Source: Candidatus Hodarchaeota archaeon
Lineage (GTDB): Archaea > Asgardarchaeota > Heimdallarchaeia > Hodarchaeales > Hodarchaeaceae
Direction: 5' to 3'
Assembly: GCA_029856365.1 (NCBI GenBank)
Contig: JAHQWW010000059.1
Coordinates: 1 to 22,296 of the forward strand
Length of the DNA: 22,296 nt
Position 1 is the stretch's first letter. Each line of letters begins with the position of its first letter. A program made the translations under genes and the position numbers. Shown in pieces: positions 12,043 to 16,879 of this stretch. A model generated the notes under the pieces. The model was given only the letters and a program-made list of their open reading frames with translations, did no database searches and was not told where the DNA came from.

Positions 12043-12152
12043 TCAGTTCTTTTTTTCAAGAAGTTAATAATATCAAAATTCATTAAAAGGGAAAAAAGTT
12101 CTTTGCAATACTAGCAAAACAATTCAGAATTTTCTCCTCAGGAGGTTTTATT

Positions 12153-12587
12153 ATGTTATTGGGAAGTAAAGAACATTTACTTGAAATTAAAAAAAGAGTT
12201 AATGCAAATGAAGAGTATTTACAAATGACTAAAGGGGAAGGAAAAAAATCCTTTACCTTTATATTGGAACCAGAAATCAAAAAAAATGTTACAGAAACGA
12301 TTCGTATTGGATATAAAGAGAATGATGGTGTAATTGAGGAAATTTGGGAGGGTGAACAAGAGACAGAATTTATTATTACGGGAAAATATGGTAACTGGGT
12401 CAAAATACTCCGTCAAGAGCTGGGGGCTACGAAAGCTCTCACAATGCGTAAACTTAAACTCAAAAAAGGTAGTCTCATAAAACTTCTTCGAACTAGTGAC
12501 AGTACAATAAAATGGATTCAAATCCTCGCCAGTATTCCAGTGGAATTTCATGGAGATTATGCTTCATTATCGACAACCGAGGAATGA
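12153..12587 (+). CDS. SCP2 sterol/lipid-binding domain protein
   Basis: GGAGG SD. The pattern ETEFIITGKYGNWVKILRQELGATKALTMRKLKLK fits the SCP2 C-terminal consensus (xDFxIxGxYxxWxxxxxGxLxxxxAxxxGKLKxxG). Confidence 0.75.
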   Translation: MLLGSKEHLLEIKKRVNANEEYLQMTKGEGKKSFTFILEPEIKKNVTETIRIGYKENDGVIEEIWEGEQETEFIITGKYGNWVKILRQELGATKALTMRKLKLKKGSLIKLLRTSDSTIKWIQILASIPVEFHGDYASLSTTEE

Positions 12588-13508: not shown

Positions 13509-13949
13509 TCAATCCTGTTTCATGAAAAATTGATAACGTCCAAACCATGCTAGTAAAAAAATCCCTCCAATTAGTGCAGCTAAATTGATTACAATAGCTA
13601 GTAAATCATATTGATAAACTCCCTGTTGCAGATTGAACGTTATATCTATCAATCCTAAAAATACAAATGCGCCACCCGCAGCTGCAGCAAAAAAGGAACC
13701 ATACGACTTCTCATTCAAAACTCCAAATGCAGAAATGAGTAACAAAATTACTATCCAAGAATCAGCAACAGGAAAAGAAGACTCAAATGCGATGTACACA
13801 TCATATAATTGATCCCCTGGTTCAAATGATTTTAAAATATCAAAGAACCATCCAATCCAAAATCCAATCAGCAATAAAGCTCCAATAATTTCACAGATAG
13901 CAATAATCCTATCATTCCTTGAATAAATTGACTTCATTATTCTTTTCAT
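13509..13949 (-). CDS. Hypothetical 4-TM membrane protein
   Basis: Four hydrophobic helices and a conserved-looking loop FESSFPVADSW. It starts 10 nt after the upstream SDR. Confidence 0.75.
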   Translation of the reverse strand: MKRIMKSIYSRNDRIIAICEIIGALLLIGFWIGWFFDILKSFEPGDQLYDVYIAFESSFPVADSWIVILLLISAFGVLNEKSYGSFFAAAAGGAFVFLGLIDITFNLQQGVYQYDLLAIVINLAALIGGIFLLAWFGRYQFFMKQD

Positions 13950-13959
13950 CCTTTATTAA

Positions 13960-14940
13960 CTATAATCCATAGAACATTGCCATGATTCGTGTCGTTAGAT
14001 TCTCAGAAAAAAATCGTTTCATTAAATTTACTCCCCATATTTGAAGTTTAGATCCAGACTTATAATGGATTTTTGGACGTTTTGCTCTTATAATCTTTTC
14101 AACTTTTTTCGACACTATTATTGGAGGAGGACTTACGATTAAATTTCGCATTATTGTTTTCCAAGCTATTTTTCCATGGTTATAATATACTGAATTTTTT
14201 TCTAATGGAATCGCATCAATCATGTCTTTAATATCAGTGGATTTGAATTTCTTGTCCTTTTTATAGAGACATGCTGTAACCGCATTACCAGGAGTATTGA
14301 TATCTCCAGGGAGGAGAGAGGATACCCGAATGTTAAATGGTCTTAATTCAATTTTCAAACTTTCTGTTAACCGTAATATTGCTGCTTTGGATGCTGAATA
14401 ATAAGCCATGAAAGGAATTGCAGAAAGGCCTGCAAGTGATGAAGTGTTGATGATTTGTCCGTTCATTTGCTCCCGCATATTAGGTAATACTGCTTGAATT
14501 ACTCGAATGTAACCAAAGAAATTGACCTCAAATTGATCTTGAATGGCTTCTAAAGAATATGTTTCTATAGGGCCAAAATGAGCAAGCCCCGCATTATTAA
14601 TAAGAACATCAATATTGTCTAAATCTTGGATAGCACTGGTCACAGAGTTCATCTTAGTAACATTCATAGAAATATATTGAATATCTTCTAAATACTTATC
14701 TAAGTTCTGGTTAATTTTGGTTGAAATAAGGATTTTACTTGGCCTTACTTCTGTTTTGGCACTGTCAATATAATAATACTTTGTATGGTCTTGAATATAT
14801 GATTCTTTGAGCTGTTCTAGATCAATATTTTCAACTTGACGTGAGGTTCCAATTACAGAGTAACCTCGAGAGGTTAAATAGATAGCATGCGATAATCCCA
14901 TCCCTGATGTAGCACCAGTAATCAAAACTTGCTTATTCAT
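13960..14940 (-). CDS. Short-chain dehydrogenase/reductase (17beta-HSD/retinol-dehydrogenase-like subgroup, probably NADP-dependent) with an insertion
   Basis: ITGATSGMG, GTSR, LINNAG, FEVNFFG.IRVIQAVLP.MR, NTSS, YSASK, PGDINT. GGAG SD upstream. Confidence 0.92.
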   Translation of the reverse strand: MNKQVLITGATSGMGLSHAIYLTSRGYSVIGTSRQVENIDLEQLKESYIQDHTKYYYIDSAKTEVRPSKILISTKINQNLDKYLEDIQYISMNVTKMNSVTSAIQDLDNIDVLINNAGLAHFGPIETYSLEAIQDQFEVNFFGYIRVIQAVLPNMREQMNGQIINTSSLAGLSAIPFMAYYSASKAAILRLTESLKIELRPFNIRVSSLLPGDINTPGNAVTACLYKKDKKFKSTDIKDMIDAIPLEKNSVYYNHGKIAWKTIMRNLIVSPPPIIVSKKVEKIIRAKRPKIHYKSGSKLQIWGVNLMKRFFSENLTTRIMAMFYGL

Positions 14941-15166
14941 TGAAACAACTCCTAAAAAAATGATTAATCTAAGTTACTGTTATGTTGACAGCAGATGAGA
15001 GGATATTAAGATTAATTTATCAATTAAACATAAGTTTTTTCAAGTTCAAAGCTGGTTATAAATATTGGAATGTTCAATTCTTGGGAAAATTGTTTTCACA
15101 GCAAGAGGAAATTATAAATAGTTTTATTTTTACATTCCAAGATATTAGAAGAATTGAGGAAAAAAA

Positions 15167-15709
15167 ATGTCCTTCCCAATGAAAATAGTTCTCATTGGTG
15201 ATCATCGAAAATCTGAAATACTACAATATTATGGAGATATTTATCGAAGTAATATCACGTTTATAGCTGTAGCAGATCTGGCTTTTAAGGTGATGAATAT
15301 AGGAGGGAATACATTCAACTTTCAGGTTTGGCAATTATCAGAAGACCCGGATTTTGAATTGGAGAGAAGAAGATACCATTATGGAGCGTTAGGAGCAATT
15401 ATAGTTTTCGATGTTACAACCGAGAGTTTTCAGAATATCATTTCATGGTTAAATGAAATATGGTCTTATAATGGAATGGAAAAATCAATTCCAATTGTTA
15501 TTGCAGGGATAAATATTCGTAAAAGATCAAATGCTCAGAAACCCATCTTTGATGAAGAAGTATGGAAGTTTACAAAGGAAATGAATCAGAAATATCAAGC
15601 AAATATAATGTATATTCCTGTTGATGAATACACAGGAGAGAATGTAGCTCAAATCTGGGAAACATTAGGGGAATGGTACATTAGATATTTACAGCAGTTA
15701 GAATCATAA
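15167..15709 (+). CDS. Rab/Ras-like small GTPase-fold protein with degenerate nucleotide-binding motifs (probable pseudo-GTPase)
   Basis: The scaffold KIVLIGD...FQVW...RYHYGALGAIIVFDVT.ESFQNI.SWL.EI...IPIVIAG...TGENV...E.L is Rab-like, but G1-G5 are all altered. GAGG SD upstream. Confidence 0.85.
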   Translation: MSFPMKIVLIGDHRKSEILQYYGDIYRSNITFIAVADLAFKVMNIGGNTFNFQVWQLSEDPDFELERRRYHYGALGAIIVFDVTTESFQNIISWLNEIWSYNGMEKSIPIVIAGINIRKRSNAQKPIFDEEVWKFTKEMNQKYQANIMYIPVDEYTGENVAQIWETLGEWYIRYLQQLES

Positions 15710-15778
15710 ATCTAGTAAAGAGACTCCTCTTCTATTAAACCAATTCTAGTAGCTAAAAATAATAATGAATGGTCAGAA

Positions 15779-16567
15779 ATGATTCAACAAATACCACAGA
15801 ATCAATTAATGGATTTTTGGCCTTATTTTGAAAGACATAAAATGCGGAACCCACTGGCTCAAAATCTTGCGTGGTCAACTGTGGAAGGTTTTGTAGATAA
15901 TTTGGAAAATCCAGATGTAGTACTTTTTCTATGTCAGCAATGGGCATGTTATTTAGCAGGAAATAGGAAAGCTGAGAATTTGAAAGAATTATTAGTGAAA
16001 ATTCCAGAAAAAGCATTTATCTATGTGCCTTCTCAAGAATGGGAAAGATGTCTTAAAACTCAATGGACCTACTTTGGATATTTTCCTCGTACTGAGCTTT
16101 CTGCAAAGAATATATCATTACAGCGAATTAGGCGATTATTAAATTCGTTGCCTGAAGGATTCCAGATGAAAAAGGTTGATATAGAAGTAGCAAATCAAAT
16201 CTTGAGTCAGAAATTTTCAAACCATTGGGTAGGAGTGATAAACTATTTTGGAAGTCCCGAAAAATTTGACGAGGAAGGAATAGGATACTGTATTCAAGAA
16301 GATGAAAAAATAGCTTCCCTAGTAATGGGATTTAAGGCATCTGTACCGATTACTCAAAGTCTTGAAATCGCCATCGCAACCCACCCAGATTACCAGGGAA
16401 GAGGTTTTGCAACATTGGTAAGTGCCAAACTGATTGAATATATTTTAAAAAAGGGGATTGAACCACATTGGGATGCTGCAAATCCCTTATCTGTAAAATT
16501 AGCACAAAAATTAGGATTCACTGATCCTGAACCATATAGGTGCTATTATTGGCGAAAGAAACCATGA
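15779..16567 (+). CDS. GNAT-family N-acetyltransferase
   Basis: C-terminal GNAT domain: GIGYCI, EIAIATHPDYQGRGFAT (acetyl-CoA motif A), P.WDAANPLSVKLAQKLGF. Confidence 0.9.
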   Translation: MIQQIPQNQLMDFWPYFERHKMRNPLAQNLAWSTVEGFVDNLENPDVVLFLCQQWACYLAGNRKAENLKELLVKIPEKAFIYVPSQEWERCLKTQWTYFGYFPRTELSAKNISLQRIRRLLNSLPEGFQMKKVDIEVANQILSQKFSNHWVGVINYFGSPEKFDEEGIGYCIQEDEKIASLVMGFKASVPITQSLEIAIATHPDYQGRGFATLVSAKLIEYILKKGIEPHWDAANPLSVKLAQKLGFTDPEPYRCYYWRKKP

Positions 16568-16879
16568 AATAATTCAGAACTAAGAAAATCCTTTGATCCT
16601 CAATTTGAAAGGGGATTAGAAAATTTAAGCTTATTGAAATCAAAGATAAAAACAATTCAAACAAAAAAACAGGTTAAGAAAGTTGATAGTTACCTTTTAT
16701 CATTGTTAACTAAAACACGAGGGACTTTTGAGGAAATACTCTGCAATATCAATCGTTTCCTTGAAACTAAAATTGTAGAAAAATCAGATATCCCTCAATT
16801 CAAAGAATATGTTGGAAAAATTGAACAACGGCTTAATTCTCTTGAACAGATTGAAAATGAAACAAAAGCTCTTAATTAA
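16568..16879 (+). pseudogene. In-frame helical C-terminal extension of the GNAT gene behind a single TGA (alternatively a separate 81-aa ORF from TTG 16634)
   Basis: The GNAT frame continues without a stop after TGA 16565-16567: NNSELRKSFDPQFERGLENLSLLKSKIK...ETKALN* (103 aa). Confidence 0.55.

Follow-up and report, generated by a model that had tools for sequence, protein, structure and literature searches.

The window analysed here, a stretch of 22,296 nucleotides from the genome of a Candidatus Hodarchaeota archaeon, carries on its plus strand a gene for a Rab-like small G domain protein with a pI of about 5, in which the motifs of a working GTPase have been replaced and which is called the pseudo-GTPase below (Table 1). 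It is located between the gene for a small membrane protein and a convergent gene for an M42 aminopeptidase, and is followed by a gene for a GNAT acetyltransferase. The protein does not contain a single cysteine, so that it has no prenylation site and the C-terminal prenylatable cysteine motif is absent. The intact frame with its GAGG element and the lack of a C-terminal prenylation cysteine had already been noted in the original prediction, which was made from the DNA letters, and both points hold. A scan for σ70 promoters and terminators gave no excess over shuffled sequences, the σ70 model being one that is not applicable to archaea. The sites at which the DNA occurs are marine sediments and mangroves, and the runs listed as containing the stretch include none of RNA.

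Table 1. Features of the locus and of the encoded protein, in coordinates of the window.
Feature	Position	Strand	Description
ORF, opposite strand	12083–12403	−	106 aa; overlaps the next ORF
ORF, probable gene	12153–12587	+	144 aa
Small membrane protein	13509–13949	−	Four hydrophobic helices read from the translation; no Pfam family
SDR gene	13960–14940		In one block with the membrane protein gene
Divergence island	14910–15725		Relative to the closest genome
A/T-rich, TATA-like stretch	15111–15120		ATTATAAATA; upstream of the pseudo-GTPase gene, as read from the sequence
GAGG	15156–15159	+	Shine-Dalgarno-like, 7 nt 5' of the ATG; seen in the sequence, putative function
Pseudo-GTPase gene	15167–15709	+	Uninterrupted ATG-initiated ORF, 180 aa
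Former G1/P-loop	15197–15214	+	Residues 11–16, GDHRKS; 3 residues shorter than GDGxVGK[ST]
Former switch I	15254–15280	+	Residues 30–38, ITFIAVADL; threonine of canonical TIGADF replaced
Former G3/start of switch II	15329–15349	+	Residues 55–61, WQLSEDP in place of WDLAGQP
Former G4	15506–15526	+	Residues 114–120, GINIRKR in place of GNKxDLR
Former G5	15620–15637	+	Residues 152–157, VDEYTG in place of TSAKTG
C-terminal helix	15644–15706	+	Residues 160–179, NVAQIWETLGEWYIRYLQQLES; long and conserved, from predicted secondary structure and conservation
GNAT acetyltransferase (PF12746)	15779–16879	+	69 bp downstream of the pseudo-GTPase gene; split by an in-frame TGA
In-frame TGA of the GNAT gene	16565–16567		
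ORF of the GNAT tail	16634–16879		81 aa

At the level of sequence, the homology of this protein to the Ras/Rab family is far above chance. The Pfam Ras model (PF00071) is matched over positions 1–155 of its 162 with 47 bits against a cut-off of 21.6 bits (E 2.8e-12) and the Roc model with 31 bits, while the NCBIfam search with the protein returned no family. When solved structures were searched by sequence, Rab1, Rab4, Rab8 and the Thorarchaeota Rab 7EZB came out on top (E ~1e-11), with alignments that open a gap of 2+1 residues within the P-loop. An AlphaFold2 model built on the alignment of 18 orthologues alone was poor (pLDDT 61.6); a second one, built on 95 sequences including more distant relatives, reached a pLDDT of 92.6 and a pTM of 0.90, a confidence that depends on the canonical GTPases in its alignment. 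The latter model, a prediction and not a solved structure, has the strand and helix order of a small G domain and the six-stranded α/β fold of the Ras superfamily. Its top Foldseek matches are all Rab proteins (E 4e-12, TM 0.74–0.79), and VIA-align superimposes it on Rab4a with a Z of 21.6 and an rmsd of 2.0 Å over 160 residues, the 50 best structural matches being all GTPases and nearly all Rabs. Compared by eye with the motifs RabF1–F5, the protein shows partial matches at NFQVW, Y(H/Y)YGA and IVFDVT, with RabF1 and RabF3 altered. The Rab-like fold that had been proposed, with HMM and structure searches as the way to check it, is thus recovered both by Pfam and, at Rab Z scores of about 21, by the confident model.

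The motifs that define a functional GTPase, namely G1 GxxxxGK[ST], the switch I threonine, G3 DxxG(Q), G4 NKxD and G5 SAK, are all missing, and at the corresponding places the protein reads GDHRKS, IAV, QLSE(D), INIR and VDEY. The strings quoted in the original prediction can be read in the translation, both those at the motifs (GDHRKS 11–16, ITFIAVADL 30–38, WQLSED 55–60, GINIR 114–118 and VDEY 152–155) and those of the structural scaffold (KIVLIGD, FQVW, YHYGALGAIIVFDVT, SFQNIISWLNEI, PIVIAG and TGENV). Its statement that all five G-boxes are destroyed is correct in that every motif is replaced, with the one qualification that the first Gly-Asp of G1 (Gly11-Asp12) is retained and Lys15 is nearly invariant in the family.

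That family was delimited by a word-index search, which yielded 17 full-length orthologues with 59–96% identity, and by an exhaustive search of representatives, which added one cluster at 56% (P0020), the next hit lying at 47% and the following ones at 38% or less. All of them are 176–181 residues long, and the 17 from the word-index search belong to MAGs that bear the label Heimdall-, Hod- or "Promethearchaeota". The same degenerate motifs are present in 18 of 18 (56–96% identity), with a family consensus of IGDxKKxEIL at G1, WQLSxDP at G3, GINIHER at G4 and VDE(R/Y/H)TG at G5, and no close orthologue has intact G-boxes, so that the proposed check of the degenerate boxes among orthologues comes out in favour of their conservation. 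Invariant columns number 41 and include Q56, L57 and D60 of the former G3, and P61, Arg120, Asp153 and Glu154 are, like Lys15, nearly invariant. The position of the Mg-coordinating Ser/Thr is variable (S/A/G/P/K/T), and two members, P0016 and P0020, have QQS at the P-loop and therefore no lysine there. The family consensus was set against the 49 fully canonical relatives of alignment A3, at those positions on which at least 80% of the latter agree; the canonical residue was kept at 2 of 13 nucleotide-contact positions versus 18 of 26 other positions (Fisher p 0.0022), and the loss is therefore concentrated at the nucleotide contacts, much as had been claimed. The best-conserved segments of the family are the β2–β3 hairpin (FKVMNIGGNTFNFQVWQL), the former switch II/α2 (DPxFxxERRRYYYGALG) and the C-terminal helix; the latter, with its family-specific W164 and W170, is a candidate interaction surface.

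Selection on the gene was assessed with orthologous DNA from six genomes. Pairwise Nei-Gojobori ω values range between 0.06 and 0.20, dS being saturated in most pairs; the least saturated one (G058 versus G062) has a dN of 0.072, a dS of 0.70 and an ω of 0.10. By maximum likelihood (codon model GY+F3X4, seven sequences, 178 codons), ω was estimated at 0.070, the corresponding values of two neighbours being 0.084 (M42 peptidase) and 0.076 (membrane protein), and the gene is hence under purifying selection as strong as that acting on its enzyme neighbours. A mangrove metagenome from another study and year contains an intact, near-identical copy (23 differences in 870 bp). Relative to the closest genome (G065), the upstream spacer and the pseudo-GTPase gene together form a local island of divergence, with 57–71% nucleotide identity against 85–95% in the flanks and a dS of 1.38 against 0.36–0.45 in four flanking genes, at an unchanged ω; this suggests an exchange of alleles by recombination and not relaxed selection. 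Relative dS also differs from gene to gene in other pairs of genomes.

When searched at E ≤1e-30, the gene is present in 8 of the 22 genomes of the GTDB genus-level group to which the window belongs and in none of the 61 other genomes of the class. Seven of these copies are full-length with an intact frame, and the eighth (G068) is cut by the start of its contig. The position between the membrane protein gene and the convergent M42 gene is constant. In five genomes (G058, G066, G062, G051 and G056) the membrane protein gene immediately precedes the pseudo-GTPase gene on the same strand, at a distance of 3–41 bp, and in three of them (G066, G062 and G051) the order SDR-SDR-membrane protein-pseudo-GTPase is realised on a single strand, where the gaps do not exceed about 40 bp. 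Relative to these three, the window and G065 have the block formed by one SDR gene and the membrane protein gene in inverted orientation, which leaves the pseudo-GTPase gene there with its own upstream region of 226 bp. At least six further genomes of the genus have the membrane protein gene but no pseudo-GTPase, so that a functional operon of the two is unproven. G050, G063 and G048 have retained the order SDR-SDR-membrane protein, their slots hold either other genes or nothing, and M42 follows beyond the slot in G050 and G048; the ORFs observed in the slot of these three loci are unrelated and encode 345 (on the opposite strand), 394 and 251 residues. Absent from 14 of 22 genomes, some of which have the same SDR-SDR-membrane protein ... 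M42 arrangement, the gene is therefore dispensable and can be regarded as an accessory occupant of a variable slot, lost in several lineages and tightly conserved where it is kept.

The GNAT gene follows the pseudo-GTPase in the window and in G065, G058, G066, G062 and G068. It is missing at the loci of G051 and G056, and orthologues of it stand elsewhere without a pseudo-GTPase in G057, G060 and G059; an obligate pair is ruled out by these cases, and the link between the two is weak, since each gene occurs without the other. More generally, the comparison of synteny across loci brought out no conserved partner gene, and none of the seven syntenic loci has an adjacent roadblock, longin or GTPase gene. 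PADLOC assigned no defence family to the pseudo-GTPase, the GNAT or the membrane protein, and gave only marginal matches for the 81-aa ORF of the GNAT tail. As to the GNAT itself, orthologous proteins have about 365–375 residues, whereas the window reads 262 residues followed by that ORF, which still matches the C-terminal tail of the orthologues. The intervening TGA corresponds to TGG (Trp) in four orthologues and to TAT (Tyr) in a mangrove strain. The same stop is seen in contigs of two runs that belong to separate studies and possibly represent the source samples. It may reflect a nonsense mutation of recent date; alternatively, re-initiation could produce the tail. In addition, one 3351-bp metagenome contig (P0018) encodes a product of 243 residues in which residues 1–64 of a pseudo-GTPase orthologue are fused in frame to the GNAT, entered at about its residue 28. 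This is either a deletion variant, in which case it would represent a strain that has lost the pseudo-GTPase, or an artefact of assembly.

The relatives of the family point to where it came from. In a tree of 141 rows, obtained by a fast search with SH-aLRT as the sole measure of support, all orthologues group together (SH-aLRT 99). Their stem is long, at 0.75 substitutions per site, and the branches within the group are short, a shape that fits an initial burst of change and later constraint. The sister sequences P0022 and P0025 also have a short P-loop (support 85), and the whole is nested in a 36-row clade of Asgard Rab-like proteins (support 95), in which one or more of the G1, G3 and G4 patterns are missing from 34 of the 36 rows. 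The only fully canonical rows of that clade are P0040 and a paralogue from the same genome as the window (G000, contig C77, 1247–1810), which is the closest paralogue of the pseudo-GTPase there, with 35% identity and a common N-terminus of MSF(L/P)MKIVL; nothing clear could be made of its gene context. One further sequence, P0021, resembles an intermediate, having kept TIGAD and WDLAGQ and lost G4 and G5, and hints, as a single sequence, that base recognition may have been lost first. Placed in this tree, the pseudo-GTPase descends from within a clade of canonical GTPases, and its family is not ancestral to any eukaryotic pseudoGTPase. When P0022, the nearest outgroup with a short P-loop, was searched against the class, only generic subfamily members with 34–44% identity were found, and by this sequence search its family is absent from the searched genomes of the class.

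The likeness to the canonical Asgard Rab-like GTPases, of the type of Thor-Rab or of the C77 paralogue, extends to a homologous G domain of equal length and to the lack of a C-terminal prenylation extension, and the motifs in common with that subfamily include MSFxMKIVL, FQIW, YYxGAxGAxxVFDVT, EIWxxNG, IPxVxxG, TGENV and LGxxYxxYL. The pseudo-GTPase differs from them in that G1–G5 are all replaced, in the P-loop shorter by three residues and in its long stem branch. Thor-Rab from Thorarchaeota has been crystallised with GDP (PDB 7EZB; Tran et al. 2024, PMC10933270), and canonical Asgard Rab-like proteins are likewise without a C-terminal prenylatable cysteine motif (PMC10933270); degenerate forms go unmentioned in this paper, the main structural one on the small GTPases of Asgard archaea. 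The wider subfamily also comprises GTPases with N-terminal extensions of about 200 residues, one of which is a weak match to a longin domain, and one member that carries C-terminal zinc ribbons. The window's own genome yields 59 Ras-family matches, most of them canonical, and according to the tree at least two independent degenerate lineages. As a separate observation, the second of these consists of C184:5724-6311, C180:3292-3765, C97:7687-8040 and C49:17670-18089, has N-termini reading MPDEYLLKICMIGIPDKLKT and MPDEYLLKICIIGTPNELKT, and adjoins in the tree the canonical C171:37049 (MPDEYLLKICAIGSGSVGKT).

The analyses above establish a G-domain homologue in which all nucleotide-contact motifs have been replaced, the new residues are conserved and purifying selection is at work. 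Its best explanation is probably that of a pseudoGTPase of the class i type, acting as a protein-binding module of fixed conformation that does not depend on nucleotide, be it as an adaptor, a scaffold or a decoy. A canonical Asgard Rab-like GTPase would have given rise to it by descent with retention of the G-domain fold, and the product would no longer hold or hydrolyse guanine nucleotide, because its P-loop has lost three residues, its NKxD and SAK motifs have been replaced and the former G5 now carries acidic residues. Its binding surfaces would be the former switch II/α2, the β2–β3 hairpin and the C-terminal helix, and toward a partner that members of the parent family bind as well, these may imitate the parent switch locked in one of its states. 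The reading as a pseudo-GTPase given in the original prediction is thus supported, since the predicted fold, the conservation of the degenerate boxes and the non-neutral evolution, for which an estimate of dN/dS had been proposed, are all in its favour.

According to one paper, the range of known pseudoGTPases extends "from bacteria to human" (PMC12490416); those of class i neither bind nor hydrolyse nucleotide, in the wording of Stiegler and Boggon (2020) as far as it is quoted in PMC12490416. The N-terminal domain of AAGAB belongs to this class (PMC12490416), and CENP-M and the pG1/pG2 domains of p190RhoGAP are examples that serve as scaffolds (PMC10211241, PMC5593906). Like these proteins, the archaeal one combines a GTPase-like sequence and, as predicted, a GTPase fold with the absence of the G motifs. 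The nucleotide-independent protein binding proposed here is a likeness in working and not in descent, and whereas the failure to bind nucleotide has been demonstrated for the eukaryotic class i proteins, for the archaeal protein it is deduced from the residues at the pocket. Further differences from the eukaryotic cases are the independent and recent origin within an archaeal GTPase clade and the organization as a stand-alone protein of 180 residues. Neither CENP-M nor p190RhoGAP is among the structural matches listed (the 50 best of VIA-align, and Foldseek), and a common origin with CENP-M is unlikely, given the descent from an Asgard Rab-like clade. Degenerate septins and other eroded GTPases, for their part, serve as fixed interfaces of assembly (PMC10731463); the similarity is that, within a GTPase family that has expanded, evolution has repeatedly eroded the nucleotide pocket, although septins belong to another GTPase class and nothing in the analyses above points to filaments or hetero-oligomers of the pseudo-GTPase.

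A sharper version of the best explanation, possible though rather doubtful as it stands, would make the protein the obligate partner or decoy of a canonical sister GTPase system, either in a heterodimer with an active Rab-like paralogue, such as that of C77, or by titrating its GEF, its GAP or a roadblock/longin regulator. The interswitch, that is the β2–β3 hairpin, and switch II/α2 are the faces used by Rab regulators and effectors, and since it is these that are conserved in the family, a decoy or partner role toward the machinery of the canonical sister GTPase would be our most specific guess. It agrees with the canonical nature of the closest own paralogue and the N-terminus in common with it, as well as with the long N-terminal extensions and the weak longin match in the parent subfamily, but the lack of a roadblock, longin or GTPase neighbour at all seven syntenic loci speaks against it. 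Less probable still, and on the whole unlikely, is a remodelled pocket that, with its short GDxKK loop, Lys15, Arg120, Asp153 and Glu154, still binds nucleotide or some other phosphorylated or anionic ligand, which would make the protein a non-hydrolysing or differently specific switch (a pseudoGTPase of the class ii/iii type, or an NTP binder of changed specificity). With Lys15 and Gly11-Asp12 remaining, a non-canonical phosphate site is possible; the highly conserved residues that replace G3 and G5 could form a new ligand site instead of filling the pocket, and partly eroded members of the clade (P0027, P0030 and P0021) may still bind nucleotide. However, the canonical anion hole cannot form in a P-loop that is three residues short, the Mg2+ Ser/Thr is not conserved, P0016 and P0020 lack even the P-loop lysine, and both elements of base recognition have disappeared, with acidic residues at the former G5. 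Finally, it is highly improbable that we are dealing with the leftover of a GTPase gene duplication that is in decay or has no function: this view would accord with the patchy distribution, the variable slot and the metagenome contig with a deletion, but is contradicted by the selection analysis, with an ω as low as that of neighbouring enzymes, and by the intact frame in the seven full-length genome copies and in 18 of 18 database orthologues, the 41 invariant columns at 59–96% identity and the short inner branches after the stem, while the translations exclude a mis-called frame in the orthologue alignment.

Asgard archaea are the closest prokaryotic relatives of eukaryotes, and to our knowledge almost nothing is established about the cellular roles of their expanded small-GTPase families, roles which bear on the origin of the membrane and signalling switches of eukaryotes. 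A "dead" Rab-like protein kept as a class-i-type binding module is a natural probe in this respect, since its nucleotide-independent partner surface is probably inherited from working switches. The erosion of G-boxes is recurrent in one Asgard subfamily, as the surrounding clade illustrates, and it is somewhat more plausible than its opposite that Asgard archaea have repeatedly and independently turned Rab-like switches into nucleotide-free binding modules that are kept under strong selection. If so, the use of pseudoGTPases as scaffolds would not be a eukaryotic invention but something that arises wherever families of small GTPases expand, of which the present family, a dispensable and narrow one confined to part of a single genus-level group, would provide a clean, stand-alone and easily expressed example. 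The partner of the protein would in that case bring to light an effector or regulator surface in the Rab-like signalling of archaea. A full-text literature search for pseudoGTPases in Asgard or other archaea brought up no relevant paper, and the present case would thus extend pseudoGTPases of the class i type, as predicted by sequence and modelled fold, to the archaea, outside of which alone we had found them described.

Farther upstream in the window, two ORFs overlap on opposite strands (Table 1). The product of the plus-strand one is 82–97% identical in four related genomes and is represented by a fragment of 39 residues in a fifth, and this ORF is probably a real gene.
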